A DNA stretch of 64,000 nt, from assembly GCA_043799715.1 (NCBI GenBank), contig JAZDNM010000007.1, positions 21,265 through 85,264 of the forward strand. The letters run 5' to 3'. Every line of letters begins with the position of its first letter. The stretch's first letter is position 1. Shown one piece after another: positions 9,282 through 50,446 of the stretch. The notes beneath the pieces are model-generated. The model saw only the letters and a program-made list of their open reading frames with translations, was not told the origin of the DNA and ran no database searches. The DNA comes from an archaeon (GTDB lineage: Archaea > Nanobdellota > Nanobdellia > Pacearchaeales > DTIR01). A program made the translations under genes and the position numbers.

Positions 9282-9291
9282 AAAGAATTAT

Positions 9292-10440: not shown

Positions 10441-10464
10441 GATTAATTATTGGTTTTCCCATTT

Positions 10465-12639: not shown

Positions 12640-12714
12640 GAGTCTGATAGGCAATTTTTATATAGTGAAGCCTTCTTTAGAAAAGAAGCTTTGGGAAGAA
12701 AACCCAAGGAAAAT

Positions 12715-12861: not shown

Positions 12862-12873
12862 TAATCTATAAAA

Positions 12874-15800
12874 TCACGCAAATGCGCTTATTGATTGGGA
12901 GATGGCTGAAGCAAGCTGGATTTTTTCAGATTCCTGGGAAATTTTTTCCATATCATCCTTGTTGCAGATGAATGCAGGTTCTGTAAGCACAGCAGGCATG
13001 TTTGTGTTCTTGAGAACATACAGGCTGCCTTCTGCGGCTTCTGTGTCAGGCTTGATGCCCCTGTCTTTCACACCCAAACTGGCTACAATATTCTCCTGGA
13101 CTATCCTGGCAAATTCCTTTCCTTTTGTGGAAGTTCTGTAATAGAATGTTTCGGCTCCATTCGCAGAGCAGTACTTTCCATCAACATCCAATGATGCAGA
13201 ATTCATGTGAATGCTGACAAAGATATCCGCTTCAAAATCATTTGCGATTTTTACTCTTGAAGCAAGAGAAACAGCAGCGTCAGTTTCTCTGGTCATTTTT
13301 ACGCTGTATCCTTTTTCTTCAAGCACGCTCTTTAATTTTTCTGCTATTGCCAGATTCATGTCTTTTTCATTTACTCCGTCGCTGTTTACAGCGCCAGGGT
13401 CTGTTCCGCCGTGCCCCGCATCTATCACAATCTTCTTGCTGGCACTCTGGGCTGCTGCAGCGGCAGCAGCTGCGTTTGCTTGTTGGCTTGATGAAGCAAT
13501 ATAATAATATGCTTTCCCGATTTTCTTTACATATGCCTTTGCGCTGTCCCCATTCTGTTTCAAGAAGGGATTCTTGCAGGAGGAAATATCCTTGCTGCAG
13601 TATGTTGAAACATAAGTAGGGCCTTCCTTGTAAGCTGCAATAGCAAGCCCGATATTGCTGAACCTTCTCATATTGCAGGCGAGATATGCTATGCCGCCCT
13701 GGATGTTCTGCTCTGTATTGTACTTGTTTATCGACAGTATCCCCATTGTTTTTGCGCATGCCCCGCCATTCTTGAAATCATTCACAACTGTGTCCTTGAG
13801 CTGCATCAAGCCGTAAGCGCCTGTGCTTGACTGCTCCTTTACATCCCAGCTGCTTTCAACTTCTATGAATGCCCTTGCAAGATTAAAATTCACATCATAC
13901 TGCTTTGCATATTTGTCAATGAGAATATAAATTGCCTGCCTGCTCTGGAATGTGCTTTCAGATTTTGAATTCAGCATATCAGAGGCGCTGTAATCTTTTC
14001 TTATTATAATGCAAATCTCGCTGTTTGAAACCGCAGCGCCTGTTATCCCGGAATTATCTGCATCAATATCTATGCAGACAACATTATCAGGGGTTTCAGT
14101 GTTCTCAGAACCCTCAACTAAATTTTTTTTTTCCTCAGAAACAATGCATTTTGAGCCAGTCCACTGGCAGTTCTCAACAGAGCATTTGTTGCTCTCGCAT
14201 TCAATCTGGTTGTTAAAATTAGAGCATTCCATGCCATCTTCGCAATTAAGGCACGCTGCCTTGATTAATCCCTTTTGAATGTAGCATCTGCCTAATTCAT
14301 GGCATTCACTGTAACTACAGGTATTGAAAATGCCGTCGCTGCATGAAACGCAGTTTGCCTTGATTGTTCCAGGGCTTATTTTTGTGATTTCAGCCACTTC
14401 TTTCTTTGATGTTTTTTCAAGCTGTATGCTCGCCACATTCTCACGATACTTTGCGACCACTAAAGTCATAAGAAGATAATCCCCACTTTCATCCAAATCA
14501 AACTGCTGCTGAATATTCATTTCCAAAATTATTTCCCTGCCGCCAAGTGAGATTTTTGCACCATCTTTCACTGACAACTCCTTCAGCAAAATAGGATACT
14601 CCTTGCTGTTGAATGAAAGAATCTTTTCTGTATTGAGTTCCAAATCAGTGTACTCTGTGCTTGATTCCTTTATCTCGGTTGCCTCAACAGATTTCTTTTT
14701 TTCTGAAGAAACAAGACTCTTTTCTATTTTTGCCTTGAAAATCAATGTTGTTATTCTGTCAAATATCTCAGCAAGCCCTATTCTTGCCTGCGCTTTGTCC
14801 TGATTAAACAAGGATTTCAGGATTATATTCTCATATTGCCCTGTCACATTTGCTATTGCGCTGTTTATTTCCTGCGCTGTTTTGTCTGCTGTGTAGGACT
14901 TGCCGACAATGAGCTTTTCAAGAATTCCATTGTCTTTTGTCAGTTCATACTGTTTCTGGCTTACCTCTGCAAGCAAAGCCTGGCTTCCAGAGTGATCAAG
15001 CATGCTTGTATTCTGCAATGTTGATGCCAGTTCCTTTGCTTTTGCAAGAGTCTCGGAAAGCAAGCCCTGGTCTGTAAAGCTCTGATTTAGCGAGAGAGTA
15101 TCAAGCCAGCATATTATTTTCTTGTCAGTGCAATAGCCCACCTGTTTCCATCTGTCTGGCTGTGTTGTCAGGCTCGGGTTGTCTGTTGTGCACACTCTGA
15201 TAATGCCTAAGCTTGAAATTGACGGGGATAATGCTGATTCCACAGATGACTGCAGATTTAATGATGAAACTGATACAATCCCTGATGTCCCTGCTATGCA
15301 TTCCTGCTCTGTTTTTACCTGCTGCGCTGCCTGCGCAGCAAGATAAGAGTCCTGCAGTTCATTCATGAAATAGGATGTTGTAACCTGCCCGAAGCCGCAT
15401 TCCTCCTGCGCATTTATCTTTACGCATAATTCTGTATATCCTGAAGGCCCTGTGAAATCAACTGACTTGTCAACCTGCTCGCCTTTTGCAATGTAGCCGA
15501 CTGCATTAGGCACAGCCATCTGCTGCATCTGCGCATAATATTCTGTCTGCGGCGACCCTTTCAGATACACATTGTAGTAAGCCCCTGCATCCTTGCCTGC
15601 ATAAATCCTGTAATAAACTTTGTAATGGGATGTTGAAGGCACAGTCGCCTCTGAAAGAATATTCGAGGAGAATGTTGCGTGGAACTGCACAGGGCTTTCA
15701 GGCTCGAGAAGTGAATCGAACATGTCTGATGTTGTTGGATATCTTGCAGAGACCCATGCCTTGCAGATTTCTGTTCCTGCCGCCTCTGTGCTTCTTGCCT

Positions 15801-18800
15801 GGAATGCATTAAAAGCATTTGCGCCATAATAATTTGTAAAGTAATTCACTGAGTCCTGCGCTTTCTGCCATGAGTCCTGCACAAACAGATACTCCCCTCC
15901 GCCGCGCGCGGTGCTTTTTCCTGACATGGTTTCAAGCAGCGACGGAATTCCAACCTTGGCTAAAGGCGCTGCCTGCTTCCAGAAAAATTCGCATAGATAA
16001 ATGGATTTAATCTGGTCGCAGATCCCCACATTTCTGCCTGTTGCAAGATTTTCCTGAAGGCAGTCCCTGACTGCTTTCTGTATCATCACAAAATTATCCA
16101 ATCCTGCATGAACCCCTGTAAGGCAGATTGGAACAATTATCCCCTCTCTTGCATTCGGCAGGCACAGCGCAATGCTGCCTATGATTCCTGTCTGCACAAC
16201 ATCTGCAACAGGATACTTGCCCCCAAAATCGCATCTTGATGAAGGGCATAAAACAGGGTCGCATAAATTAAACATTGTATGGCAGTCTTTTGGTGACATG
16301 AAATCCTCGCATTCATACTGGGGAACTGTAACTGCAGGCTTTCCTCTTGAAAATGACTGCCCTCCAACAGATATGCCTCCTTTGTTCTTGTACTGCCTTG
16401 CAGCTTCAAGCAGATACTGCCTTGCGAGTTTTATCATGTCTGCTGAATTGGGTATTGATGAATAGGTATTTTCAGACATTCCTGTCTGCATGCTGAATTG
16501 AATGCACGGCTTGTCATCCCCATGCCCTGTTGATTCCCATTCTTCCAAGCCATCGCCATTAACATTGCAAATCCAGTAGCTTACAGGCATTCCTGATTCA
16601 GTGTAGGATTTTGTGCTTGAAGTGCCTAAGCTGGATGGCTCGGTTGCGGCATACCATCCGTCTTTTGCATATTTGCCAAGAGGGAGTATGGCAGGCAGCC
16701 CTGCATAAGAGCCTGTCTCCCAGAATTTTACAGCAGGATTTTTGTAAGGATTTGAATATGTTGATGCTGCTGTTATTTCAGCGTATGAAGTTCCAAGGCT
16801 GCTTAAGATTTTTCTCTTGTTCTCCCCTGCAAGTTCATCTCCTATTTTCAATGCACCACTACTGCTAGAGATTTCATAAATTTTAGAAAAGCTGTAGCCC
16901 TGCCCGATAGAATCAAGCACTGCTATATAACTGATGCCCTGCGCAGTGAAAACCGCTGCTTTCTGCCCCTGCGAGATGCTGACGCCCTGCATTTTGCTGT
17001 AATCAGCTTCCTTGACAATATTTTTGTCAGAGAAGGATATTGCCTTGCTCTGGTCCCCTACAAGGGTGCTTTCAACATCTATCCCTGCTGCCTGGAAGAT
17101 ATTTGTTGCTTCTGTGCTTGCCTTGGTGGTTGTTAAAATCTTGTTCCAGTAATTTGCATCATCATAAAGCTTCTGCTGCGAAGCCTGGCACATTGCATCA
17201 GACAGCTTTTTATCAGTACATGCCTGCTGCATTTCAAGATTGAACAATGAATCCCTTACATCAGTTGATGAAAGATAATTCTTGTCCTCAAGAACCTTAA
17301 TATTCCCCTCGCTGAAGACATCCCCTGCTTTCAGCTCAGTGCCATCCCTTGACTTGAATGTAACATCCTTGTACTCATCAAAATATGTCTGGGATTCCTG
17401 GACATATTTTTCCTGGTTTACATATTCCTCTCCGAATGCTCCAAGAACTCCCTCTTTCTTTTCAACAACACCTGCGGTTTTCTTTATTGTGTCTGCTTTG
17501 GAATTTACATTCTTGTAAATGCCCTGTATTGTGCTGACAGAGCTGTCAATTGCGTCTGCATTCTTGTAATAGCAGTCATGGAATGTGCTGTATTTGCCTT
17601 CTGCAACCCCTGACTGGCATATTGGCTCCCAGTATTTCATTGCCTCTGTTCTCGCAAGGCTGCTGCCGCTGCCTGCACCCAGATTATTGAAGAAATTTTT
17701 CACAACAAAATATGCGCTGCCAGCAAAGCATGTGCCTTTCCATACCTTAATGATACTCCCAAGATTATCAACAATCTTCTCCCATTTTGCAATTGAATCG
17801 TTAAGCTCGCTTATCAATTCCTGGGTTTTTTCAGTGCTGAGCTGTATCGACCTTTTCTCAATCCCAATCTTAAATGTGAAATTTGCCTGTGTCTGGGCTC
17901 TTGCAATCATTGGAGAGATAGTCACTGATGCATCTTTTTTCAGGTTTATCTTGCTGACTCTCAAGTCAACTAAGATTTCTTTTGAGGCATCCTTTACAGA
18001 AAGCTTCACTGAATCTTTTTCCTTTACTTTCACTGTAATCGGGTTGCCAGCCTTGTTTTGATAGGAAAATTCAACATAATCCTCTGCAATGCTCAAAACA
18101 GACAATGTCCCTGAGACTGCCTCGTTCTCGCTGTAAGCTTCTGTATTGCCATTAACCATCAAGTCAGCGGACTTCTCGTCCCTGCTCACTTCCTTTATGT
18201 CCTCAAGAACAGCATAATAGCTTCCGCTTGAGGCAGAGATGAATGCTGAAGACAAGCTTAAATCGTGGATTTTCATCAGCTCAAGCTGCTGGCTTGCCTG
18301 TTCTGCGATTCCTGAGCCAGAATAGTCCTTTGCAATCCTGTTAAGCAAATCCTCCTGTGTCTTGAACTTTTTCAAATTTCCAGCAAGCTCTGCTGCCTTG
18401 TACAGCGCATCAGCGCCGTAATATTCCGGCTTTGCACCTTCCTGCTGGGATTTTTTCTCAGAACCATACTGCTCTGAAACTTTTTTGTAATCAGCCAAAG
18501 ATTCAGAGAAATATTCCTCAAGAAGTTTGCCAAAATCATCAGAGTTGTAATTTTTTTCAACAGAGCCTGTCAGCTTGTCAAATGTGAAATAATAGTCCCA
18601 GACAAAAGTGCCCTGCCCTGTTTCCGACGCTGTAATAATCCTGAATTCCGCGTCCTTTCCGAGATAATCTTTGAGCCCTTTTTCAACGCTTGTGTCGCAG
18701 CCGCTCAGGCATTTGATATCCTCTCCAAATTTTGAAGAGCCTTTAATCAGTGTGCTGAATATGTTGAAAAGCGAGTACTTCTTGCCTTTCAGGAGGCTGT

Positions 18801-20052
18801 TTACTACTATATTGAAGTTGTCGAAATAATCGCTCTTTATTGTGTCTGCCTTGACAATCACAACAAAATCCTGATTGAGATTTTTTAGATAAGAGGAAAT
18901 TGCATTTGATGTGCTGCCGATATATGCAAGATATACATTCTGCCCTGAAACAATCTTGTCTCCTGTCTTGAATTCATTTGATGCAATCTCATTCTTTGCA
19001 GAGTCCCTGATTGTCAATCTTGCTTTTGGAGGGTCAATTGAGAGAGTTGTCGGCTGTGAGTCCTTGCAGTTTACTGTCACCTTTCCTCCGCCGACAATAT
19101 TCTGCTCTATATTTGAAATCCAGCATTCATCATCCAAAAATCTCTGCCCTTTTGAAAGCCATAATTCATCGTCGCCAATCCTCACCTTTGCCTTCATTTC
19201 CGGATAGTTGATGCTGTTCAGATTAACTTTCAGCGCAGCAGAGCAATAGTATCCGGGCAGATAGATTTCATTTGAACTCTGCCCTGCCCTTAATGTAACA
19301 GAAGTCAACTGAGTTACTGCATCAGTGTATATCGCAATCTTAACATATTCTCCTGCAGAATCTTTTCCTATCTCCAATGCCCTCAAATACGCCTTTCCGT
19401 TCCAGAATGAATACATTTTGTAATATTGTTTCCATTCCTCCTCGCTCAGCACAGGCAGCAGGAATCCTGCTTTCCCAACTCCAAACGCTTTTTCTGCATT
19501 ATACTGTATCAGGGCTGTTAAATTTGCCTCAACCCACTCAGTCATATTCTTTTCAATCGGCTGATTTTTTAATATCACAACAAGATACCCCAGATTATTC
19601 AATACAGGGCTGCCGAGCAGCTGGGTTCCCCATGTTGTCAGGGCTGCTCTTGCAGGATGAAATCCTATCCCTGCAATATCTTTTGACAACTGCTGCCCCT
19701 TGAATGAGATTGATGTTATTTCAGGGACTTCTATCAAAGGATTAATTTTTATTCCAGTAAGCTGGCAGAAAACCGGGACATCCTGCTCCTCAAGCAAATC
19801 GCTTCTGACAACTGCAGGCGAACAGCTTCCAGGCAAAATCTGCAGGATGAAATCCTGCCTTGCGAGGCACTGCTCCTGGCTGAATGCAGGCCAGTATGTA
19901 TCAATTGAATTTGAGTAATATGAAAGCGGAGAAGGGGAATAGCTGTATGTTGCTGCATATGCTGCTGCAGAGATTATTGCTGCAAAGAAAATGAAAGCAA
20001 AAGCTAACAGTATTCTGCATTTGCCTATTTTAATCAAATCTGTTTTTCTCAT
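12874..20052 (-). CDS. Giant secreted protein (2392 aa) with C-terminal lytic transglycosylase (SLT/GH23) and N-acetylmuramoyl-L-alanine amidase (Amidase_3) domains
   Basis: N-terminal signal ...LLAFAFIFFAAIISAAAYA. SLT motifs are FIEVESSW, GAYGLMQL and AIAAYKEGP (about nt 13501-13938). An Ala8 linker follows. Amidase_3 motifs are IVIDAGHGGTDPGA, VSIHMNS and GAETFYY (about nt 12877-13437). A 12-Cys module lies at about nt 14140-14358. Confidence 0.9.
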   Translation of the reverse strand: MRKTDLIKIGKCRILLAFAFIFFAAIISAAAYAATYSYSPSPLSYYSNSIDTYWPAFSQEQCLARQDFILQILPGSCSPAVVRSDLLEEQDVPVFCQLTGIKINPLIEVPEITSISFKGQQLSKDIAGIGFHPARAALTTWGTQLLGSPVLNNLGYLVVILKNQPIEKNMTEWVEANLTALIQYNAEKAFGVGKAGFLLPVLSEEEWKQYYKMYSFWNGKAYLRALEIGKDSAGEYVKIAIYTDAVTQLTSVTLRAGQSSNEIYLPGYYCSAALKVNLNSINYPEMKAKVRIGDDELWLSKGQRFLDDECWISNIEQNIVGGGKVTVNCKDSQPTTLSIDPPKARLTIRDSAKNEIASNEFKTGDKIVSGQNVYLAYIGSTSNAISSYLKNLNQDFVVIVKADTIKSDYFDNFNIVVNSLLKGKKYSLFNIFSTLIKGSSKFGEDIKCLSGCDTSVEKGLKDYLGKDAEFRIITASETGQGTFVWDYYFTFDKLTGSVEKNYNSDDFGKLLEEYFSESLADYKKVSEQYGSEKKSQQEGAKPEYYGADALYKAAELAGNLKKFKTQEDLLNRIAKDYSGSGIAEQASQQLELMKIHDLSLSSAFISASSGSYYAVLEDIKEVSRDEKSADLMVNGNTEAYSENEAVSGTLSVLSIAEDYVEFSYQNKAGNPITVKVKEKDSVKLSVKDASKEILVDLRVSKINLKKDASVTISPMIARAQTQANFTFKIGIEKRSIQLSTEKTQELISELNDSIAKWEKIVDNLGSIIKVWKGTCFAGSAYFVVKNFFNNLGAGSGSSLARTEAMKYWEPICQSGVAEGKYSTFHDCYYKNADAIDSSVSTIQGIYKNVNSKADTIKKTAGVVEKKEGVLGAFGEEYVNQEKYVQESQTYFDEYKDVTFKSRDGTELKAGDVFSEGNIKVLEDKNYLSSTDVRDSLFNLEMQQACTDKKLSDAMCQASQQKLYDDANYWNKILTTTKASTEATNIFQAAGIDVESTLVGDQSKAISFSDKNIVKEADYSKMQGVSISQGQKAAVFTAQGISYIAVLDSIGQGYSFSKIYEISSSSGALKIGDELAGENKRKILSSLGTSYAEITAASTYSNPYKNPAVKFWETGSYAGLPAILPLGKYAKDGWYAATEPSSLGTSSTKSYTESGMPVSYWICNVNGDGLEEWESTGHGDDKPCIQFSMQTGMSENTYSSIPNSADMIKLARQYLLEAARQYKNKGGISVGGQSFSRGKPAVTVPQYECEDFMSPKDCHTMFNLCDPVLCPSSRCDFGGKYPVADVVQTGIIGSIALCLPNAREGIIVPICLTGVHAGLDNFVMIQKAVRDCLQENLATGRNVGICDQIKSIYLCEFFWKQAAPLAKVGIPSLLETMSGKSTARGGGEYLFVQDSWQKAQDSVNYFTNYYGANAFNAFQARSTEAAGTEICKAWVSARYPTTSDMFDSLLEPESPVQFHATFSSNILSEATVPSTSHYKVYYRIYAGKDAGAYYNVYLKGSPQTEYYAQMQQMAVPNAVGYIAKGEQVDKSVDFTGPSGYTELCVKINAQEECGFGQVTTSYFMNELQDSYLAAQAAQQVKTEQECIAGTSGIVSVSSLNLQSSVESALSPSISSLGIIRVCTTDNPSLTTQPDRWKQVGYCTDKKIICWLDTLSLNQSFTDQGLLSETLAKAKELASTLQNTSMLDHSGSQALLAEVSQKQYELTKDNGILEKLIVGKSYTADKTAQEINSAIANVTGQYENIILKSLFNQDKAQARIGLAEIFDRITTLIFKAKIEKSLVSSEKKKSVEATEIKESSTEYTDLELNTEKILSFNSKEYPILLKELSVKDGAKISLGGREIILEMNIQQQFDLDESGDYLLMTLVVAKYRENVASIQLEKTSKKEVAEITKISPGTIKANCVSCSDGIFNTCSYSECHELGRCYIQKGLIKAACLNCEDGMECSNFNNQIECESNKCSVENCQWTGSKCIVSEEKKNLVEGSENTETPDNVVCIDIDADNSGITGAAVSNSEICIIIRKDYSASDMLNSKSESTFQSRQAIYILIDKYAKQYDVNFNLARAFIEVESSWDVKEQSSTGAYGLMQLKDTVVNDFKNGGACAKTMGILSINKYNTEQNIQGGIAYLACNMRRFSNIGLAIAAYKEGPTYVSTYCSKDISSCKNPFLKQNGDSAKAYVKKIGKAYYYIASSSQQANAAAAAAAAQSASKKIVIDAGHGGTDPGAVNSDGVNEKDMNLAIAEKLKSVLEEKGYSVKMTRETDAAVSLASRVKIANDFEADIFVSIHMNSASLDVDGKYCSANGAETFYYRTSTKGKEFARIVQENIVASLGVKDRGIKPDTEAAEGSLYVLKNTNMPAVLTEPAFICNKDDMEKISQESEKIQLASAISQSISAFA

Positions 20053-21938
20053 TTGAATGAAATATCAATTCCGCTTTCTTCAGCCAGAATGTATGCGCTC
20101 TGCAATTCATCAACACTCTTGGGAGTTTGTATGTATGAGGCCGTAATGCTCATTTTCCTTGAATTTGCGAGAATACTTGCTGTTAAATATTCTGCCCTGC
20201 TTCCTCCTCCTGATATAACCTGTGAAAGAGTCTGCGCAGGCAGCTCTATATCATAGCATTGTTCATTCTGGAATCCGAAAAAGCCTGCTATGCCCCTTGC
20301 AGGAGCTTTAACGCACTGCTGTGTCTTGTAGCTGGCAATTTCAATTTTGCCCTGCCTGAAAATCTGCACAGAAATATTGTAATAGCCCTCTTTGAGCTGG
20401 ACTGTTTTCTGCAGAGGATACATAATACTTTCAGTCTCGTCCCCTGAATCAAATGTTATGAATGCCTGCTCGTCTTTTGACAATGGAACCCCGCCTGCAT
20501 TCACATCAAGCGTTAAATTATACAATGGCTGCATCACAATTTCTGCGCTGCCCTCCTGATTTGTGCTGAACTGCAGTTTTGCATCAGCATATCCTGCTGC
20601 CGAGGCAATGATAAAACCGTTAACGCACTGGGGAAATTTCCCTTCAAGCTCTGCTGTTGCCCCGGAAATTTTTGTCCTGCCAATCTCACACTCCTCATTG
20701 AAGCACTTTAATTTTATGTCTGCCTCAACAGGCTCAAGCCCTATATCAAATGTTGAAACTTTTACAGGAGTTGTCTTGTATTTGCATAATTCGGATTCTT
20801 GCTGCTGCGTAATCTCGCTTAATACAGCGTTTCTTGGCATGTTCTTGCTTATCACAACAAGCACTGGAAACTGGAAAAACTCTGATTCATCAAAAATCTG
20901 GATTAAAACAGGGAATGCAATATCATAAACAAAATGGTACTGGACATAGCAGAATCCAAGAATCCCCAAACCCTGCTGCATTCCGATTGGCTTTGCAATA
21001 AGCATCTCCCCATTATCGCTTTCTTCAGAATCCCCTGAAACCTCAAACCTCATCGGGAAACTGCTTGAGTACATGAAGTTAATATTTTCAGAAACCCTCG
21101 CTGCATTGTCAACAACAAAATACTTGTTTCTTGAGTCAGCAAGGCTGTAATAACTGCCCTTGAGCTTCAATGATGCGATGTTTGCTGAAACAGCATTCTG
21201 CAAGTCCTGCATTATCCCTGATTTCAGCCATGTTTTCGGCGCGCAGTTCAGCTCAACATCGCTTACAGGGGCATAAAGGCTGAGCACATCAATTGTGTAG
21301 TTCTCAAGGAACAGTTCATCCTGCTGCTGGTTATAGATTTTGACAGCAAGATTGTAGAACTTTCCAAGATTGCTTTTTATCTCTGCTCTGTGCCTTGAAA
21401 GTTTTGCTTTAGTATTCCCCTTGCTGACTACAAGCCCTGCATCAACCTCCGCTGAGATCATGCTATCCTTGATGCTTACTGATGCCTTTGCATTTTCCCG
21501 CGCAACAGAATATCCCTGCAATTCAAAATCTGAAAAGCTGCATTTTGCAATCTCTTCCTGGATATACTGGGCAAGCTGTTTTTGCATTTCTGCAATAGAA
21601 GGCACCTGCTGCCTTGCGATGTTGTTTCCTGAAATGTAAAACCAGTAAGGCACTGCATTGCCAAAGAAATCAAGCTGGGAGGAGAAGGGCATATAGGAAG
21701 AGCCTTTTTCAAATGAGGGGGGATAAATATATCCTGCCTGCGCTCCAAGCATTGCACTTCCTTCCTGAAGCTTTTCCTTAATGCATCCTGTAAAATAATT
21801 TTCAATCGGCTGAAATTCAGCCGGAACTGCAGTTGGCATGCTTCTCAAATAATAGAAAAGCCCGACTGAGCCGACTATCAATACGGAGATTATAACAAAA
21901 ATCGTAACCTGTGCTTTTTTGTTCTTTAAAGTGTTCAT
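20049..21938 (-). CDS. Hypothetical 629-aa protein with prepilin-like (class III) signal, translationally coupled to the giant gene
   Basis: The start is chosen at MNTLKNKKAQVTIFVIISVLIVG (21938) because the longer ORF start at 21995 would include TATA-like sequence. Its stop overlaps the giant gene ATG as ATGA (20049-20052). Confidence 0.7.
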   Translation of the reverse strand: MNTLKNKKAQVTIFVIISVLIVGSVGLFYYLRSMPTAVPAEFQPIENYFTGCIKEKLQEGSAMLGAQAGYIYPPSFEKGSSYMPFSSQLDFFGNAVPYWFYISGNNIARQQVPSIAEMQKQLAQYIQEEIAKCSFSDFELQGYSVARENAKASVSIKDSMISAEVDAGLVVSKGNTKAKLSRHRAEIKSNLGKFYNLAVKIYNQQQDELFLENYTIDVLSLYAPVSDVELNCAPKTWLKSGIMQDLQNAVSANIASLKLKGSYYSLADSRNKYFVVDNAARVSENINFMYSSSFPMRFEVSGDSEESDNGEMLIAKPIGMQQGLGILGFCYVQYHFVYDIAFPVLIQIFDESEFFQFPVLVVISKNMPRNAVLSEITQQQESELCKYKTTPVKVSTFDIGLEPVEADIKLKCFNEECEIGRTKISGATAELEGKFPQCVNGFIIASAAGYADAKLQFSTNQEGSAEIVMQPLYNLTLDVNAGGVPLSKDEQAFITFDSGDETESIMYPLQKTVQLKEGYYNISVQIFRQGKIEIASYKTQQCVKAPARGIAGFFGFQNEQCYDIELPAQTLSQVISGGGSRAEYLTASILANSRKMSITASYIQTPKSVDELQSAYILAEESGIDISFK

Positions 21939-22022
21939 TTGACGAAGCAAGAGCAATAAAAAATAGAGCCGAAAGCCATATTTAAATTTTGTCAAAATTG
22001 CCTTAAAACATGGGAATTAGAA

Positions 22023-22158
22023 TGAGCCCGACAGGATTCGAACCTGTGATCTTCTCTATTCTGAGTTTCTTCTCGGTTTTTCTCTTTCCGAGGTTTCTCT
22101 TTTTCTAAAAGAGAAAACTCACGTCAAAGAGACGTCTTAACCACTGGACTACGGGCTC
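22023..22158 (-). tRNA. tRNA-Val (anticodon GAC) with 63-nt intron at 37/38 (22059-22121)
   Basis: Acceptor GAGCCCG/CGGGCTC, anticodon stem TCTCT/AGAGA, loop TTGACG-intron-T and T-arm ACAGG-TTCGAAT-CCTGT. Confidence 0.85.
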
Positions 22159-22262
22159 ACGTCAAAGCAAGAAATGCTCTGGTTTAAAATATTTGCTTTT
22201 TCAGCTTTGTGTAATTTATCAATAAAAATAAAATTTATAAATCTGACTGCTGTAGAATAATC

Positions 22263-23679: not shown

Positions 23680-23797
23680 AGCCTCCAGCAGGATTTGAAC
23701 CTGCGACCCTCTGTTTTTTTAGTTTTCTTTTCCGAGGTTTTCTTCCCAAGAAAAGCTCTTACAAAACAGATGCTCTAGCCAACTGAGCTATGGAGGC
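23680..23797 (-). tRNA. tRNA-Thr (anticodon UGU) with 44-nt intron at 37/38 (23716-23759)
   Basis: Acceptor GCCTCCA/TGGAGGC, D-arm GCTC-AGTTGGCTA-GAGC, anticodon stem TCTGT/ACAGA and T-arm GCAGG-TTCAAAT-CCTGC. Confidence 0.85.
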
Positions 23798-37321: not shown

Positions 37322-38209
37322 ATGGATGCGATTTTTTTTGCTGATGTTCTGCTCGCTTCAATAGCCCTTATCTGGCTTTTTGCCGCGGCTATTCAGGACA
37401 TGAAAAAAAGAGAGGTTGCAAACTGGCTGAATTTCTCGCTTGTTGCAATTGCGCTTGCAATAAGGGCGATTGTGTCTGTTGTTTCATCTGATGCAGGATA
37501 TTTCATTTATGGAATTGCAATGACTCTGATTTTTTTTGCAATAGCAAACCTGTTCTATTACGCCAGAATTTTTGCAGGAGGCGACGCCAAAATGCTTGTA
37601 GCCCTCGCAGCTGCATTTGCAACAACTCCTGTTTTTGTCTCAAGCAGCGTAACATCAATAGGAAATATCCAGATTCCATTTATGGCGGTGTTTGTGCTTA
37701 ATATGCTGTTCGCCGGCTCTGTTTACGGGATTTTATGGAGTGCTGCCCTCGCAGCAAAGAACTTTAAAGAATTCATAAAAGAATTCAAAAAATCCAGCAG
37801 ACAAAACAGGCTTGTAAGAATAATCTTCTTTCTGCTTTTTGCTATTGTGCTTTTAATCTGCTTTTATGTAAAGGACATAATTCTGCTGATTATCGCCCTT
37901 TTGGCGCTGGCATTTCCCTACTTGCTGATTTTTGTCAAGGCTGTTGAGAATTCATGCATGGTAAAAAGCATCAAGGCATGCCAGCTTTCAGAAGGGGACT
38001 GGCTTTACAAAGCAGTGAAAATCGGAAAAAAGAGCATAATGCCAAGATGGGAAGGGCTTAACAATGCGGAAATATCACTGATAAAAAAATCAGAAATAAG
38101 AAGAGTGATGATAAAGCAGGGCATACCATTTGTTCCTGTTTTTCTTCTTGCGCTTATAATAAGCTTCTTCGCAAATTTGCTTGTTGTTCTTGTTGGTATT
38201 ATCGGATAA
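37322..38209 (+). CDS. Archaeal prepilin/preflagellin peptidase (A24 family, PibD/FlaK/EppA-like)
   Basis: A polytopic membrane protein with the two catalytic Asp contexts AAIQDMKKREV and AGGDAKML. A CTTATAAAT box sits at -28. Confidence 0.8.
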   Translation: MDAIFFADVLLASIALIWLFAAAIQDMKKREVANWLNFSLVAIALAIRAIVSVVSSDAGYFIYGIAMTLIFFAIANLFYYARIFAGGDAKMLVALAAAFATTPVFVSSSVTSIGNIQIPFMAVFVLNMLFAGSVYGILWSAALAAKNFKEFIKEFKKSSRQNRLVRIIFFLLFAIVLLICFYVKDIILLIIALLALAFPYLLIFVKAVENSCMVKSIKACQLSEGDWLYKAVKIGKKSIMPRWEGLNNAEISLIKKSEIRRVMIKQGIPFVPVFLLALIISFFANLLVVLVGIIG

Positions 38210-42187: not shown

Positions 42188-42916
42188 TCAAATGCTGAAC
42201 CTTACTTCAATATTCCTGTATTCTTCATTTATGAAATATCTGCTTTTGCTTTTCATTGTTATTGATTTCATGTCTATTTCAGAAATTTCCCCTGTTTCTA
42301 TATTAAAACTGCCAAGATTCATGCACAATGCAATATCCTCCTTGGCTTTGCACTCATCTGCCTTCTGCCAGATTTCCTGGAATGAAGCAAGATTAATATC
42401 CTCCAAGTCAACAGCAAAAGAGGATTTGAAATCAAGCATAAAAGAGTACCCAAAAACACCCTTGACGCTTCCCTTCAGCTCAATCTCGTTAGAATCAAAA
42501 TTAATTATCTTATCTTTAATGCTGGCTTTGTATTTTATTTTGTTAAAATCAGGATTATAATAGAGAGAATTTATCTCATTCATTCTTTCTCCTATATCTG
42601 TTGCAAATTCCTCATCAAAATTTCTTGTAAAATTGCAGAAATGCAAATACCCTGAATAAACCTTGCAGTCCTGTGGTGCAAATTTCCCTTCATCAGAAAT
42701 ATTCTGATAGGCATTTGCAACCGCAATCTTCGCAGCTTCTGCTGCGAATTCCCTGTAAACAGATATTTCTTCGTTCATCTTCAGCACTTTATCAGGAGGG
42801 GCAAACATTTCAGCAGCTCCTGTTTTTGCTGTAATAAACTTGAAAAGGGCATAACCGCAAAGCACGAAAACTGCGATAGTTATAAGCAGTGCGAAAATTG
42901 CAGCTTTCTTGTTCAT
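42188..42916 (-). CDS. Pilin-like protein (class III signal)
   Basis: N-terminus MNKKAAIFALLITIAVFVLCG. Its start overlaps the stop of the upstream gene as ATGA (42913-42916). Confidence 0.6.
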   Translation of the reverse strand: MNKKAAIFALLITIAVFVLCGYALFKFITAKTGAAEMFAPPDKVLKMNEEISVYREFAAEAAKIAVANAYQNISDEGKFAPQDCKVYSGYLHFCNFTRNFDEEFATDIGERMNEINSLYYNPDFNKIKYKASIKDKIINFDSNEIELKGSVKGVFGYSFMLDFKSSFAVDLEDINLASFQEIWQKADECKAKEDIALCMNLGSFNIETGEISEIDMKSITMKSKSRYFINEEYRNIEVRFSI

Positions 42917-43392
42917 GATTTTTCCTCCAGACATTTGCTGTCAACAGCAAGCATTGCTGTAACATCCTTATTTTTTGTTACAGGAAGAATTATCATTACT
43001 GTATTCCCAATATATGCTGTATTGCCTGACTTGATTCCCGCTGCCTCAAAAAAATAACAGCTTCCAAAAGGCTTGAATATTTCTTCTGTTTTATTCTTCA
43101 CAATAGCATTTGACTCTATTGAATCAATCCTTATGATATCCGCAATTTCCGTTTCTATACCCTGAAATTCCACTTTTGTATCCAAAAATGCCTTTAATGA
43201 AATCATTGCCTGCTGTTTCCCGCTGTAAGCAAGATAAACATCTGAATTTTTCCTGAACTGGAATCCCGCGGCTATTGTGCTGAGATAAAAGAAAATCGCA
43301 ATTGTAAAGAAGATTAATAGAGTCGCGACTGTCAGTGCGACAGTTTCTCCAAGCTGCGCTTTTTTTGAAATTCTTATTTTTTGTCTTGTCAT
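42913..43392 (-). CDS. Pilin-like protein (class III signal)
   Basis: ...ISKKAQLGETVALTVATLLIFFTIAIFF. An ATGA overlap with the upstream gene lies at 43389-43392. Confidence 0.6.
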   Translation of the reverse strand: MTRQKIRISKKAQLGETVALTVATLLIFFTIAIFFYLSTIAAGFQFRKNSDVYLAYSGKQQAMISLKAFLDTKVEFQGIETEIADIIRIDSIESNAIVKNKTEEIFKPFGSCYFFEAAGIKSGNTAYIGNTVMIILPVTKNKDVTAMLAVDSKCLEEKS

Positions 43393-43853
43393 TCTGCCCC
43401 TTTTATCGTTGCGACAAACAAGTCGGCATAAATTCCATTACGGCTGACTGAATAGTATCTCTGGAGGAGGCATGCGGGCTTGGCTTTCATAGTAATCCCT
43501 TTAATCCTGCAGAGAATTTCTAAATCGCTGTTTCCAATTGAGAAGTTTTCGTATCCTGAAGTGATGCGGACATAACTCTCCTCCAAATCAATGTTCAAGC
43601 CGCATTTTTCTGCACTTAATGAAGAGATATCCTGAAGACTGCTGTCTTTTATCATGCAGCCGGCAACTCTTCCTGCAATAATTGCGGTTTCCATTTCCCT
43701 TGTGTCCACATTTCTTGAATAGAAAACATATGAAATCATTATCACTCCTACAACAATAACTATAATCAGGAAAAATCTGAATATCCATAAAATGCTGTCC
43801 CAGCCAAGCCTGTCAAGCGCCTTTTTCTCAATCAAAAATCTGCTGTTTGTCAT
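43389..43853 (-). CDS. Pilus-associated membrane-anchored protein
   Basis: 154 aa: ...EKKALDRLGWDSILWIFRFFLIIVIVVGVIM. It lies in the same operon. Confidence 0.5.
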   Translation of the reverse strand: MTNSRFLIEKKALDRLGWDSILWIFRFFLIIVIVVGVIMISYVFYSRNVDTREMETAIIAGRVAGCMIKDSSLQDISSLSAEKCGLNIDLEESYVRITSGYENFSIGNSDLEILCRIKGITMKAKPACLLQRYYSVSRNGIYADLFVATIKGAE

Positions 43854-43854
43854 T

Positions 43855-44226
43855 TTACTCCCAAACCTTTATTTTTATCTCATTGCCCTGCACTGATGTT
43901 TCAATCTGCCTTGCTGTTGAGAATGAATATTCATAAGGATGTGCTGCAATTTCTTTTGAGTTTACCTCAACCTTATTCCCCTTGAATGAAACAGTTAAAT
44001 TTTCAGTGTATACTGTGAATTCTGTGCCGGGCTCTGCAGAATCAACAAGCAGGGCAATTTCTTTTGCCAGAATCTGCTGCTTTGCAAGCGTGCCTGTTGA
44101 CGCATTTCTTATGAAAGCAAGCAGTACAAGAAAAATTATCAGGACAAAAACAATATAGATGATAAAAGACTGCAATTCCTCCATATCCCCTTTTTTTCCC
44201 TTCATAGCTTCCTGAATGATGTGCAA
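43855..44226 (-). CDS. Pilin-like protein (class III signal)
   Basis: MKGKKGDMEELQSFIIYIVFVLIIFLVLLAF, counting from an internal Met at 44205. Confidence 0.55.
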   Translation of the reverse strand: MHIIQEAMKGKKGDMEELQSFIIYIVFVLIIFLVLLAFIRNASTGTLAKQQILAKEIALLVDSAEPGTEFTVYTENLTVSFKGNKVEVNSKEIAAHPYEYSFSTARQIETSVQGNEIKIKVWE

Positions 44227-44236
44227 TTAATAAATC

Positions 44237-45094
44237 TTATGGGATACTTTCTATGTTCGTGCAGCCAACCTCTCTTATGTCTTGGGGATTATATTCCACA
44301 AGATACAGCGAAGCGAGATAATCAGAGCCCTTTCCTCCTGAAAACATGTCTGCAATTATCTTTTTCCATTTATCTTGAAGTGCTCCCCCAATCGCTCCGC
44401 CGATTATAAGCCCTACTCCTGCACCGATTGTAGTTCCTGGACCGGGAATAATGCTGCCTATTACAGCCCCTACTTTTGCGCCTATCCATCCCCCCTCTCC
44501 GACAGCAAGCCAGTTGGATAATAATTCATTCTTGAAAAATGAGAAGACAACCACATATTCCTCATTAGTATCTATCACTTCCCCTGTGCCTACAACCTCT
44601 GGACTATCTAAATTGGAAAAATACTGCAAGTAAGTTATATTGCTTGTCGGCAGTTTCTCAACAGCAAGATATTCCTTGAAATCATTAATCTTGAGATTTT
44701 TTGCATCCTTGTCAAATTTTATTGTTGAGCATATAAGGCAGTAATTCTTCTTGAAAAGCCCTGCTGAAAAGAAATTCAATTTGCCTTCTCCCAGCATCCA
44801 CCAGCAGTCGTGCATTGCATTTGCAATCCTGCTTTTTATGGCATTCTCATCATCCTGAGTAAGGAGTATTTTTTCTGTCCTGCATTTTAATGGCAGTCCT
44901 GCCCTCAAAGGAGCTCCCACAATTGTAGGCAGGCTTCTCATCAAAACAGACTGATGGCATGCCTCCCTGTCAATAAAGTCGGTTGTTCTTGAATTGTAAA
45001 TGTATAGAAACCAGAATATAACTGATGCAACAATGATTGTGATGATTATGCCTACAAGCACCTCTGCTTCTATGCCTTTTTTGTTGAATTTCAT
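44237..45094 (-). CDS. Pilin-like protein (class III signal), Gly-rich C-terminus
   Basis: MKFNKKGIEAEVLVGIIITIIVASV. The start at 45094 has GGAG upstream, and the ORF-track start at 45148 adds an implausible Cys-rich leader. Confidence 0.55.
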   Translation of the reverse strand: MKFNKKGIEAEVLVGIIITIIVASVIFWFLYIYNSRTTDFIDREACHQSVLMRSLPTIVGAPLRAGLPLKCRTEKILLTQDDENAIKSRIANAMHDCWWMLGEGKLNFFSAGLFKKNYCLICSTIKFDKDAKNLKINDFKEYLAVEKLPTSNITYLQYFSNLDSPEVVGTGEVIDTNEEYVVVFSFFKNELLSNWLAVGEGGWIGAKVGAVIGSIIPGPGTTIGAGVGLIIGGAIGGALQDKWKKIIADMFSGGKGSDYLASLYLVEYNPQDIREVGCTNIESIP

Positions 45095-45201
45095 TTTACA
45101 AAAATCTCCTGAGCAGATACCACAATGAGGAAAAGAGCACTGCAGCAAAAACTATCCAGAGGATTACCCTTATCAATGTTTCCTGTTGGAGTGATGCTTT
45201 T

Positions 45202-45714
45202 TTATTTTTCTTTATTCGCAATCCAAACATGATATTTATCCTCCTCATTAGTAATGCCCAGTTTAAGCAAATTTATCTTTTCTGCGAGATTGCCAGTCCA
45301 GGTTTTCAGGGGTTTTGGAAATTCCCTGCATGCGGAGTTTTTTGTGCAGTCAGCAGAATCCCTGCATAGGCATAGGCATACTTTGTCCGTGCATTCTGCC
45401 TTTCTTTTTACTTCAGTGTCCCTTAATCCGACAACAGGATTGCTGTATTTGTCAAAAGATAGAATCCACCATCCTGCAGGAGCATACACAAGCACAGGAC
45501 TTGGCGTTGACTCGCCAATACCCAGCATATCCACAGTGTTATATAATTCCTCAAGAGTTCCCTGAGCCTGAAGCACTTCCTTCTGTGTCGAGAAAAAAAT
45601 TGAGGAAAGGGAAGAGCCAAGATAAAGAAGGGGGATAATGCAAAGAATGCCCACTATCAAGCCGATAACAAATTTCAGCAGTCCTCTTTTGCCGCCTAAT
45701 AATCTTCTGGGCAT
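45202..45714 (-). CDS. Pilin-like or pilus-associated protein
   Basis: MPRRLLGGKRGLLKFVIGLIVGILCIIPL. It has its own TTTAAATAA box at -29. Confidence 0.55.
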   Translation of the reverse strand: MPRRLLGGKRGLLKFVIGLIVGILCIIPLLYLGSSLSSIFFSTQKEVLQAQGTLEELYNTVDMLGIGESTPSPVLVYAPAGWWILSFDKYSNPVVGLRDTEVKRKAECTDKVCLCLCRDSADCTKNSACREFPKPLKTWTGNLAEKINLLKLGITNEEDKYHVWIANKEK

Positions 45715-45763
45715 AGCAAGAAAAACAAAAAGAATTATTTAAACTTTTGCGATTTCCCGCTTG

Positions 45764-46165
45764 CTAGCCAATCATCGCTGTGCATGCCTGTGTTTTGAGA
45801 ATATCTGTGCAGTCTATCCCGCATATGATATTATATCCCTCTTCCTTAAGCCCATTGCATGTTTTTTTCTCAGGATTCTTTGGATCAGATATCACAACGC
45901 TTTTTTTCTCACAGCAGTACACTGTGTTAAGCTGGGCAAGGCAGTTGGCATTGCATGTGCTTATCACTGCATCTATGCTGTCTATTGCAGGGGTAAAAAC
46001 ATTGATTTTTTCCCAAAGATTTGTCCAGCCCATTGTGAATCCCAATGTAACAACAAGCAGCACAAGAACAGCAAGTATGACAACAACAATAGTCCCAATG
46101 GTTGTCTCAGCCCCTCTTTTATTTTTCAGCATTTTTCCTCTTTTTGTTTTAAACTCCTGCTCCAT
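45764..46165 (-). CDS. Pilin-like protein (class III signal)
   Basis: ...MLKNKRGAETTIGTIVVVILAVLVLLVV. An alternative start is at 46132. Confidence 0.6.
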   Translation of the reverse strand: MEQEFKTKRGKMLKNKRGAETTIGTIVVVILAVLVLLVVTLGFTMGWTNLWEKINVFTPAIDSIDAVISTCNANCLAQLNTVYCCEKKSVVISDPKNPEKKTCNGLKEEGYNIICGIDCTDILKTQACTAMIG

Positions 46166-46217
46166 CGCCCATTTTATGCTCCTTGTCCACCCATTTTTTA
46201 ACCGCCGCTTGTCGGCT

Positions 46218-46418
46218 TCATTCCCTTATCAATGCCCTTGTATTTTTAAACCTTTTTGTCCCAAACATCAAAATTGCTGTTCCCAGAACCTCGCTGCCTA
46301 TTCCTGAGAAATACTGCTTGAGATAATTGTTCCAGAAAAGGAAAAGCGCTGATGCAACAACAACAATCACAAGCAGGATGAGTACCACTTTTATTATTGT
46401 ATCAATTGTTATTTCCAT
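46218..46418 (-). CDS. Small hydrophobic pilus-locus protein
   Basis: 66 aa: MEITIDTIIKVVLILLVIVVVASALF. Confidence 0.45.
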   Translation of the reverse strand: MEITIDTIIKVVLILLVIVVVASALFLFWNNYLKQYFSGIGSEVLGTAILMFGTKRFKNTRALIRE

Positions 46419-46419
46419 A

Positions 46420-46572
46420 TTATCTGCCGAACCTGAACAGGTTGCTCACTTTTTCTATCAAATCTGCGCCCTTTGATTTCAGGAGCATAATTCCCAACCC
46501 AACAATTGCAAGAACAAGCAAAGCAATAATCCATTTTGCAAGAGTTTCAAAAGCAATGCCTTTTTTGTTCAT
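46420..46572 (-). CDS. Small pilin-like protein (50 aa, unannotated in ORF track)
   Basis: My translation is MNKKGIAFETLAKWIIALLVLAIVGLGIMLLKSKGADLIEKVSNLFRFGR. A TTTATTAAC box sits at -29. This is the first gene of the operon. Confidence 0.55.
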   Translation of the reverse strand: MNKKGIAFETLAKWIIALLVLAIVGLGIMLLKSKGADLIEKVSNLFRFGR

Positions 46573-46647
46573 TGTTTCAGAAGGCATAAATTGTTAATAA
46601 ACTTAACTCTCACAAAAATTTTTAAGTTGCAATCTCCTTGAAATCAA

Positions 46648-50433: not shown

Positions 50434-50446
50434 CTTCCCTCTTTTT

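Follow-up and report, generated by a model that had tools for sequence, protein, structure and literature searches.

We propose, with slightly better than even confidence, that two adjacent genes in the 64,000-nucleotide stretch of archaeal DNA analysed here (the window) form a two-gene unit in which a membrane or fibre anchor, processed by a prepilin peptidase, holds a secreted giant effector. The upstream gene encodes a 629-residue, cysteine-rich protein with a class III-type N-terminus, and the downstream gene a 2392-residue protein with a predicted Sec signal. The giant has already been noted by others, whereas the upstream partner and its pairing with the giant are apparently undescribed, no account of either having been found within our incomplete coverage of the literature.

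Locus and conservation of the gene pair

Both genes lie on the minus strand. The small gene, for the predicted surface protein, occupies 20049..21938, and the giant gene spans 12874..20052 from an ATG start in the ORF listing. The giant's start codon overlaps the stop codon of the small gene in a four-nucleotide ATGA common to both ORFs (20049..20052, minus strand), just as an earlier note on this DNA had described for a 629-residue ORF. The longest ORF listed for the small gene opens at a TTG and comprises 648 residues (20049..21995, minus strand). We place the start not at this TTG but at the ATG at 21938, which gives a 629-residue protein beginning MNTLKNKKAQVTIFVIISVLIVGSVGLFYY on translation and matches both the database copy (P0001, 629 residues) and the N-termini of homologues. 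About 44 nt 5′ of the ATG, a TATA-box-like TTTAAATA read by eye (21979..21986, minus strand) is a candidate archaeal promoter for a two-gene operon.

The same-strand tRNA-Val that the earlier note had placed directly upstream is present as well, 84 nt 5′ of the small-gene ATG. This tRNA-Val(GAC) with a 63-nt intron (22022..22159, minus strand) was not called by ARAGORN at default settings, and was recovered by an Rfam tRNA match (22023-22158, minus strand, 54.9 bits) and by aragorn -i, the search with introns (c[22022,22159], intron i(40,63)). In about 47 of 80 relatives, a tRNA-Val(GAC) is found no more than 700 nt upstream of the gene pair, on either strand.

The pairing, whose conservation in relatives the earlier note had singled out as decisive, is kept throughout the loci compared. 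The next gene downstream of the small gene on the same strand is a giant homologue in 82 of 82 loci, and in all three loci found independently from the giant side the upstream gene encodes a Pfam-less protein of 618-633 residues. The distant subfamily retains the gene pair together with the same ribosomal, SRP and TFIIB neighbourhood. Giants of the two deep subfamilies are only ~26% identical, and still gene order, strand and adjacency persist at all 82 loci, while the genes around the pair do rearrange among relatives. Such persistence argues against the two genes being mere neighbours whose products have no functional link. We regard that reading as barely credible, even though ATGA overlaps are common genome-wide and this one is missing from more than half of the relatives, and although binding between the two products is itself a proposal.

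The form of the junction between the genes varies. The 4-nt ATGA overlap is the commonest arrangement (38 of 82 related loci), some overlap occurs at 50 of the 82, and gaps of more than 50 nt separate the genes at 13. In the closest genome (L007) the ATGA overlap is absent and the genes lie 2 nt apart. Conservation of the overlap, a second point raised in the earlier note, therefore holds to the extent that ATGA is the most frequent state, but it is not obligatory. Over half of the relatives, the closest genome among them, lack the overlap, and the fixed stoichiometry once suggested for the two proteins is therefore no conserved requirement. ATGA overlaps are frequent in this genome overall and represent an ordinary operon feature. 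Coupled translation via ATGA is likely in this genome, but is no conserved requirement beyond it. Shine-Dalgarno-like motifs precede 13 of 80 giant starts against a background of 7%, no clear enrichment, and this count neither proves nor excludes coupling by reinitiation. A conserved operon is, by itself, no proof of a complex between the two proteins.

The 629-residue protein family

The small protein is the founder of a Pfam-less family of Pacearchaeota and Woesearchaeota, detected in at least 425 GTDB species genomes, with 7405 cluster representatives at E ≤ 1e-3 and 1647 homologues by word-index search. Searches of Pfam, NCBIfam and PDB sequences returned no match, and HisF matches at E ~0.004 were rejected as noise. 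The family has 10 invariant cysteines, and the cysteine richness of both the small protein and the giant favours an extracellular location for the two. An AlphaFold2 (AF2) model of the 629-residue protein (pLDDT 87.7) comprises a helix at residues 9-32, a proline-rich linker at 33-39 and a further helix at 40-66. Foldseek comparison of this model with the PDB retrieved generic tandem beta-sandwich proteins only, all with TM-scores of at most 0.13 and none of them a type IV pilin. Matches across the PDB and BFVD (Gram-positive pilus adhesins, SlaB, and phage baseplate and tail proteins) had TM-scores no higher than 0.19 and were not taken as homology. No relatives of the small protein were found on IMG/VR viral contigs, and for this reason a prophage or tailocin origin was dropped.

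A predicted class III signal and its peptidase

The 629-residue protein begins MNTLKNKKA/QVTIF, a short basic leader followed by a hydrophobic stretch, as expected of class III signals. This assignment, already made in the earlier note, is upheld at the level of sequence by the family as a whole. Among 255 intact homologues from two deep subfamilies, K or R occupies position −3 in 85% and position −2 in 89%, G, A or S occupies −1 in at least 91%, and Q occupies +1 in at least 97%. At the start of the helix, T or S is found at +3 in 86% and F or Y at +5 in 86%. The leader is variable (median 8 residues) while the junction, [KR][KR][GAS]/Q-x-T-x-F, is almost invariant. Judged by these residues, the signal is of class III and follows the EppA style in having Q at +1. 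Cleavage is predicted between A9 and Q10, which would remove the leader MNTLKNKKA (aa 1-9; 21912..21938, minus strand) and leave a mature protein whose hydrophobic N-terminal segment, QVTIFVIISVLIVGSVGLFYYLR (aa 10-32; 21843..21911, minus strand), has a Kyte-Doolittle maximum of 2.52 and is predicted by AF2 to be a helix.

The ORF also passes a FlaFind-style pattern scan. When the window is read in all six frames, its ORF segments contain just four instances of a strict pattern, [KR][GAS]Q plus 20 hydrophobic residues directly after it, and two of these instances are at true N-termini, namely those of the 629-residue gene and of a pilin-like ORF of the type IV pilus-like locus described below. 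The Pfam Class_IIIsignal model PF04021 did not match the 629-residue protein at E ≤ 0.01. The predicted processing enzyme is a Peptidase_A24 family prepilin/class III signal peptidase at 37322..38209 on the plus strand (Pfam E 1.1e-10), where the earlier note had correctly recognised one; it carries both aspartate motifs (IQDMKKRE and AGGDAKM).

The N-terminus could alternatively be an ordinary uncleaved signal-anchor of a type II membrane protein, with its conserved residues serving helix packing. The hydrophobic stretch of 23 residues is long enough to span a membrane, PF04021 does not match, and cleavage is deduced from the motif. However, signal anchors are not expected to hold such a junction invariant beside a variable leader, and in this family the cytoplasmic edge keeps an invariant [KR][KR][GAS]-Q after a leader that varies freely in length and sequence. 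The junction is, moreover, the same as that of the pilin-like proteins of this genome, and we consider an uncleaved anchor unlikely.

Membrane anchor or filament subunit

The window contains a type IV pilus-like locus (42188..52738, minus strand), recognised by T2SSE Pfam and NCBIfam FlaI/TadA matches and not adjacent to the gene pair. It comprises a FlaI/TadA-like ATPase (50447-52738), a polytopic platform-like protein (48298-50526) and seven pilin-like ORFs (42188-46165), all on the minus strand. All seven of the latter share the [KR][KR][GA] junction followed by a hydrophobic helix at their N-termini. The 629-residue protein might be a true, large ‘modular’ minor pilin that this machine incorporates at a fibre's tip or base, with the giant displayed on the filament, away from the cell. 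This would fit the shared class III junction and the presence of ATPase, platform-like protein and peptidase within one window. Positions +2 to +5 are also without an acidic residue in the family, whereas most small pilin-like ORFs of the window have one, and tip subunits such as bacterial GspK likewise have no Glu5. Bacterial modular pilins such as Streptococcus sanguinis PilB reportedly show that a pilin N-terminus can carry a large module (PMC8179133).

Several observations speak against a filament. The pair lies 20 kb from the pilus-like locus and is beside pilus genes in no relative examined, with none found within ±10 kb at five loci (L001, L003, L005, L089 and L090) or within ±4 kb at three more (L091-L093). 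Foldseek recovered no type IV pilin fold, and the predicted helix of only 23 residues gives way to the proline-rich linker before the ectodomain instead of running on into a pilin head domain. Display of the giant on a filament, as the earlier note had entertained, is accordingly not favoured, and a modular minor pilin appears fairly improbable. We favour a membrane anchor, since the AF2 helix ends at residue 32 ahead of the linker, Foldseek found no pilin and the pair has no pilus neighbours.

The giant protein: conserved core and swappable tail

The giant has a Sec-type signal peptide (aa 1-33; 19954..20052, minus strand) with an AYA/A-like site, which is also its sole transmembrane-like segment. 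Its homologues all carry n/h/c-type signal peptides and not class III junctions. By these features the giant is predicted to be secreted through Sec by means of a cleavable signal and to have no membrane anchor.

At E ≤ 1e-10 the giant has 593 homologues. BLAST coverage across 56 complete giants drops after residue ~1750, and only residues ~1-1750 are conserved, which defines a core at aa ~34-1780 (14713..19953, minus strand). The core has no PDB sequence match, and sequence and profile searches of the PDB gave marginal TPR and coiled-coil hits only. An AF2 model of aa 1080-1800 was partly confident (pLDDT 66.8) but poor in the most conserved part, and Foldseek matched this model to no more than a generic beta-sandwich, which is uninformative. 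Within an invariant cysteine-rich stretch, invariant alignment columns mark a hydrophobic hairpin, DVVQTGIIGSIALCLPNAREGIIVPICLTGVHAGLDNF (aa 1284-1321; 16090..16203, minus strand), which scores as borderline transmembrane on the Kyte-Doolittle scale in 20 of the 120 homologues and has an AF2 pLDDT below 50.

Beyond the core, the giant of the window ends in two lytic domains. An SLT lytic transglycosylase domain (aa 2044-2154; 13591..13923, minus strand; Pfam PF01464, E 2.4e-15) retains the E-S and GLMQ motifs, and is followed by an Amidase_3 domain, an N-acetylmuramoyl-L-alanine amidase (aa 2208-2389; 12886..13431, minus strand; Pfam PF01520, E 3.9e-55; CwlD/AmiA-like in NCBIfam). Other giants end differently. 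Among 48 C-terminal ends, we found SLT in six, M23 and glucosaminidase in two each, and Amidase_3, phage lysozyme, M15_4 and DUF2272 in one each; giant tails also gave PHROG endolysin and lytic-tail matches. The C-terminal end therefore reads as a swappable module on a conserved core, judging from domain composition. Lytic Pfam domains occur in only ~15 of the 120 closest giants, and most giants have no recognisable hydrolase. Hence the description of the partner as a ‘giant murein hydrolase’ suits this giant, with its SLT and Amidase_3 domains, but not the family, in which the conserved part is residues ~1-1750 and hydrolases are a minority addition; the peptidoglycan link may be valid for some lineages only. 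Remodelling of the cell's own wall by the lytic domains was set aside, as archaea, to our knowledge, lack murein.

Proposed mechanism and implications

In the mechanism that we propose, the two-gene operon would be passed down vertically throughout Pacearchaeota and Woesearchaeota. Its first gene would give rise to a disulfide-rich extracellular protein of ~620 residues with a short basic leader (MNTLKNKKA), which the A24 prepilin-type peptidase of the genome is predicted to cut before the invariant Gln. The mature protein would then begin with its 23-residue hydrophobic helix (QVTIFVII...) and be retained in the membrane, as are the bindosome proteins of Sulfolobus. The second gene would supply the giant via the Sec route, with a cleavable signal peptide and no membrane anchor of its own; the giant would therefore need a partner to stay on the cell, and we propose that this partner is the product of the first gene. 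The conserved junction, the pairing of the genes, the types of signal and the variable domain content are seen in the sequences, whereas leader cleavage, physical contact between the two proteins and anchoring by the 629-residue protein are inferred. The conserved cysteine-rich core of 1750 residues, including the hydrophobic hairpin, would be the common working part of the giants, and the C-terminal end an exchangeable module, in this case a lytic transglycosylase with a muramoyl-alanine amidase that may cut the peptidoglycan of bacteria touched by the cell.

The pair makes a good candidate for the means by which these tiny symbiotic archaea grip or attack bacterial hosts. We know of no cultured Pacearchaeota or Woesearchaeota. 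Giant ‘murein transglycosylase’ proteins were reportedly used in earlier genome surveys to suggest bacterial hosts, and our analysis turns this lead into a defined two-protein unit in at least 425 species-level genomes. It proposes a biogenesis route in which the giant is exported through Sec while a prepilin peptidase processes the partner, and alters the earlier view by treating the lytic domains as interchangeable tips on a conserved core. A new and very large family would also join the small set of non-pilin proteins predicted to carry class III signals. Testable predictions arise for the cleavage site, complex formation, peptidoglycan specificity per tail type and surface location. A more specific, and quite unlikely, extension is that the pair is the core host-contact machine, in which the processed anchor positions the giant, the lytic tail opens bacterial peptidoglycan and the hairpin at aa 1284-1321 engages the host membrane, so establishing a feeding contact. 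If true, this would be an archaeon-on-bacterium attack device without a described relative.

Comparison with known systems

Compared by description, the giant of the window fits fam00969 in its length (2392 residues), SLT domain (E 2.4e-15), Sec signal and lineage. In the relevant passages of a 2021 study (PMC8204110), fam00969 is a DPANN family of giant murein-like lytic transglycosylases of up to ~3000 residues described by its SLT domain; corresponding passages of Rinke 2013 and Castelle 2015 note the giant family too. Our family resembles fam00969 as portrayed there in size range, SLT domain and lineages (Pacearchaeota and Woesearchaeota). However, SLT is here one of several interchangeable tails on a 1750-residue core, whereas those passages describe the family by SLT. 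The passages of all three sources make no mention of an obligatory upstream partner.

The pair also invites comparison with SlaA/SlaB of Sulfolobales, in which adjacent genes likewise encode a large secreted protein without an anchor and a smaller, membrane-anchored protein rich in beta-sandwiches. By analogy, the pair could be a two-component S-layer-like envelope with the giant as outer sheet, the 629-residue protein as membrane stalk and the lytic modules as secondary additions. The pair is universal, single-copy, syntenic and situated among housekeeping genes, its two products match this division into a large anchorless and a smaller anchored protein, and SlaB (8qox_B) is among the Foldseek beta-sandwich matches (E 1.4e-5). 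However, that match has a TM-score of 0.13 and stands amid generic Ig-like matches, neither protein has a PDB sequence match, and we see no homology. SlaB is anchored at its C-terminus, not at the N-terminus as proposed here. The proteins of the pair are also very cysteine-rich (53 Cys in the giant, 10 in the small protein), carry lytic modules and retain 35-50% identity across deep lineages; high cysteine content and such cross-lineage identity are unusual for S-layer proteins. Repeated independent fusions to different peptidoglycan hydrolases point to bacterial contact rather than a passive coat, and we judge an S-layer-like envelope to be fairly improbable.

We return to the processed anchor as our preferred reading, for which three groups of proteins offer parallels. 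Pilins of Methanococcus maripaludis have leaders of 5-13 residues ending in G and a conserved +1 Gln that is thought to be needed by EppA (PMC3875500). The Epd pilins (EpdA-E, MMP1685; PF04021, Class_IIIsignal/DUF361; processed by EppA) share with the 629-residue protein a basic leader running to G/A, the +1 Gln, a small hydroxyl residue at +3 and a hydrophobic helix, and the genome studied here likewise encodes an A24 peptidase. Unlike the Epd motif QxSxExxxL, however, the family has F or Y in place of Glu at +5 (86%) and no PF04021 match. At 629 residues with a large multi-domain ectodomain, the protein also differs from Epd pilins of 60-250 residues, is not encoded in a pilus locus and has no pilin fold that we could find. 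Like the 629-residue protein, minor pilins of the modular and tip kinds (S. sanguinis PilB; GspK of type II secretion) join a large functional module to a pilin-type N-terminus and, in tip subunits, have no acidic residue at +5, but they belong to another domain of life, and no sequence or fold similarity to them was found.

The sugar-binding proteins of the Sulfolobus bindosome (GlcS, AraS and TreS, assembled by BasEF) are non-pilin class III signal proteins that keep their N-terminal helix after cleavage (bioRxiv 10.64898/2026.04.22.720090). The 629-residue protein differs from them in lineage (DPANN) and motif (QxTxF), and in having no substrate-binding-protein fold and no ABC transporter; its partner is a giant secreted protein. 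Both are nevertheless large class III-signal surface proteins, predicted as such in our case, that are encoded beside functional partners and not beside pilus genes.

Gene pairing across relatives

The small protein, a surface protein with a pilin-type signal, and the giant, a large secreted protein, are encoded by adjacent genes on the reverse strand. The giant ORF spans 12874..20052(-) and encodes 2392 aa from an ATG start, and the small-gene ORF is listed as 20049..21995(-), giving 648 aa if a TTG start is used. From the ATG at 21938 the small protein has 629 aa and starts MNTLKNKKAQVTIFVIISVLIVGSVGLFYY; this start yields the same length as its database copy P0001 and agrees with the N-termini of homologues. 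The two genes have 4 nt in common, which read ATGA on the coding strand, and a TATA-like TTTAAATA was seen by eye ~44 nt upstream of the small gene's ATG. The best genome match was Pacearchaeota RIFCSPLOWO2_01_FULL_38_24, with 73% identity; together with the intron-bearing tRNAs, it identifies the organism as a DPANN archaeon of Pacearchaeota type. On rechecking, all sequence statements in the earlier note proved right, including those on the ORFs, the ATGA, the tRNA and the peptidase gene.

Adjacency of the two genes had been set beforehand as the test that could refute their association. We fetched 86 loci from relatives, 82 of which have enough downstream sequence to score the next gene, and the gene that follows on this strand encodes a giant homologue in all 82. 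Queried from the giant side, three of three giants have a gene for a 618-633-aa protein lacking Pfam matches directly upstream. An extra ORF (235 aa) between the two genes was found in a single locus, L026 (2914-4083), and is unrelated to the giant core. The pair also occurs in a distant subfamily, with a 2-nt gap in locus L087, whose giant is 26% identical to that of the window, and a 4-nt overlap in loci L089 and L090. The neighbourhood in this subfamily is unchanged: SRP54, FtsY, phosphoglycerate mutase, GINS, L44e and S3Ae flank the pair to one side, LSM, S8e and TFIIB to the other. It is very unlikely that the small gene and the giant are mere neighbours.

The pairing is universal among the examined loci, but the ATGA overlap is not: the exact ATGA occurs in 38/82 loci and any overlap in 50/82, with gaps of 0-50 nt in 19/82 and larger gaps in 13/82. 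Translational coupling, proposed earlier from the overlap, is likely in this genome; it is not a conserved property, because ATGA is kept in only these 38 loci, a gap of 2 nt separates the genes in the closest genome (L007), and Shine-Dalgarno-like motifs ahead of giant starts are not clearly enriched. Synthesis of the two proteins at a fixed stoichiometry, a further idea of the earlier note, is hypothetical and, with the overlap lost in over half of these loci, cannot be a general requirement.

Flanking tRNA genes and low-GC island

Rfam places a tRNA at 22023-22158(-) (54.9 bits), which aragorn with intron search identifies as tRNA-Val(GAC) with a 63-nt intron at 22022-22159(-); default ARAGORN reported no tRNA at this position. 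The linkage of tRNA-Val(GAC) to the pair is conserved, with the tRNA lying no more than 700 nt upstream of the small gene in ~47/80 relatives (L001-L086) and flipping orientation, so that its strand is either the same or opposite. Introns are present in five of the seven window tRNAs, and those of tRNA-Val, tRNA-Leu and a third tRNA (22022-22159(-), 12714-12862(+) and 23680-23797(-)) are clearly alike in sequence, which suggests that a single intron family has spread to different tRNA genes. Two of the tRNAs with similar introns flank the operon. The aragorn -i calls of 'tRNA-Stop(tta)' at 30314-30423(+) and 'tRNA-Phe(aaa)' at 23680-23797(-), both intron-bearing, probably reflect misplaced introns or anticodons and not a suppressor tRNA. 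A low-GC island at 8175-11418 (GC 0.30 at 8-10 kb), ~1.5 kb past the giant 3' end, encodes a GmrSD/HNH endonuclease, an EcoRI-like adenine methylase and an IS-type transposase, and is probably a mobile restriction-modification insertion.

A large protein family with a class III junction

The small protein has no sequence match in Pfam, NCBIfam or PDB, and founds a very large, unnamed family. A word-indexed search returned 1647 homologues, every one of them full length at 610-660 aa, and an exhaustive profile search with the small protein returned 7405 cluster representatives at E<=1e-3. Relatives occur in at least 425 GTDB species genomes; among the 80 listed, nearly all are labelled Pacearchaeota, Woesearchaeota, Nanoarchaeota/Nanoarchaeia or simply archaeon, and two carry bacterial labels. 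Contigs L055 and L082, with GenBank labels 'Candidatus Dojkabacteria bacterium' and 'bacterium', hold the archaeal pair and are probably mis-binned DPANN contigs. No relatives were found among the viral contigs searched.

Across homologue N-termini, the residues ahead of the hydrophobic helix differ in length (median 8) and sequence, and the junction is almost fixed. Counted over 255 intact family members, position -3 is K/R in 85%, -2 is K/R in 89%, -1 is G/A/S in at least 91%, +1 (the first residue after the predicted cut) is Q in at least 97%, +3 is T/S in 86% and +5 is F/Y in 86%. In a second and more divergent subfamily, whose members have 640-680 aa, leaders are reduced to a minimum and follow the pattern MKKRG|QVT. 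A variable leader beside a fixed junction is the sequence-level hallmark of a class III signal, the prepilin-type signal cut by A24 peptidases, and the small protein is classed accordingly by sequence criteria; on this point the conserved junction bears out the earlier note. An uncleaved signal anchor would also account for a hydrophobic N-terminal helix, but is difficult to reconcile with a junction that stays invariant next to a leader that varies freely. The window encodes a Peptidase_A24 at 37322-38209 (Pfam), in which both aspartate motifs are present.

An AlphaFold2 model of the small protein is confident (pLDDT 87.7, 107 homologues) and comprises a helix at residues 9-32, a Pro-rich linker (33-39), a mixed alpha/beta region (40-370) and beta-sandwich domains (387-629). 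The family has ten invariant cysteines, which fits an extracellular protein. In Foldseek searches of the model against PDB and BFVD, every match was a generic tandem beta-sandwich protein (TM-score <=0.19), and type IV pilins were absent; the small protein thus has a pilin-like N-terminus and a body that is not recognisably pilin, and we do not class it as a structural type IV pilin.

A type IV pilus-like locus lies elsewhere in the window (42188-52738(-)), comprising a 763-aa FlaI/TadA-like ATPase (50447-52738(-)) with a ~300-residue N-terminal extension, a polytopic 742-aa platform-like protein (48298-50526(-)) without a match in Pfam or NCBIfam searches, and seven pilin-like ORFs (42188-46165(-)). 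The [KR][KR][GA] junction of the small protein is also found in these pilin-like ORFs. It is possible that the small protein sits in a fibre as a tip subunit or minor pilin, and the lack of an acidic residue at +2 to +5 would suit a tip subunit, but neither gene context nor the AlphaFold2 model favours this role.

Conserved core and variable tail of the giant

All giants start with an ordinary Sec-type signal peptide, and the window giant has no further transmembrane-like segment, which indicates a secreted protein without an anchor of its own. In BLAST comparisons of 56 complete giants, coverage stays high between aa ~50 and ~1700 of the window giant and collapses past ~1750, where each giant carries 50-830 unrelated residues. 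In the window giant, this tail holds SLT (aa 2044-2154) and Amidase_3 (aa 2208-2389) domains (Pfam), joined by a poly-Ala linker; between core and SLT lies a Cys-rich module, CVSCSDG...CQWTGSKC (14083-14352(-), aa 1901-1990), with ~16 Cys in 70 residues. Pfam scans of 48 tails identified SLT in six, Peptidase_M23 and glucosaminidase in two each, and Amidase_3, phage lysozyme2, Peptidase_M15_4 and DUF2272 in one each, with no Pfam match in the remainder; PHROGs agreed, with endolysin and lytic tail protein matches. Precomputed Amidase_3, SLT or Hydrolase_2 domains are present in 15 of the 120 closest giants, including all nearest relatives of the window giant. The conserved partner of the small protein is therefore the core and not, as had been proposed, a murein hydrolase: since tails vary and few giants carry a lytic domain, 'giant murein hydrolase' fits this genome's version, and the family as a whole is more aptly seen as a giant core protein repeatedly fitted with different peptidoglycan-cutting modules.

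No relative of the core was found in PDB, and an AlphaFold2 model of aa 1080-1800 was mediocre (pLDDT 66.8), failing (pLDDT <50) in the most conserved, invariant-cysteine stretch. This stretch contains a conserved hydrophobic hairpin, DVVQ[ST]GIIGSxxLCLPNxxEGIxVPVCLTGIHAGLD (16090-16203(-), aa 1284-1321), which may be membrane-active or serve in oligomerisation. A two-component, S-layer-like coat would be compatible with a universal and syntenic pair; against it, the proteins are cysteine-rich, well conserved and fused again and again to lytic enzymes.

Proposed function and comparison with known systems

Most likely, the small protein is cleaved, held in the membrane and anchors the giant. 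After membrane entry, the A24 peptidase would remove the leader ahead of Q10, and the 23-residue helix would retain the protein, whose ectodomain could then keep the anchorless giant on the cell surface, with the giant tail (here SLT and Amidase_3) presumably working on bacterial peptidoglycan.

Passages of PMC8204110, repeated in PMC10936187, report giant proteins, which the window giant fits by description, as fam00969 and propose that they bind or degrade bacterial walls. In a full-text literature search of incomplete coverage, neither the upstream partner nor its class III junction nor the modular make-up of the giant tail was found to be described. The small protein is a surface protein with a class III signal, and its pairing with the giant is new and very widespread, which gives clear experimental access to how uncultured DPANN archaea interact with their hosts.

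The pilins of M. maripaludis have leaders of 5-13 residues whose last residue is Gly, followed by a conserved +1 Gln considered necessary for the peptidase EppA (PMC3875500). Such Epd pilins resemble the small-protein family in leader and junction type and in the +1 Gln, but have Glu at +5, where the family has Phe, and match PF04021, which the family does not; on both counts we set aside an Epd/DUF361 pilin assignment. The class III-signal sugar-binding proteins of Sulfolobus show the same membrane retention by a helix as proposed here and, like the small protein, are encoded apart from pilus machinery.
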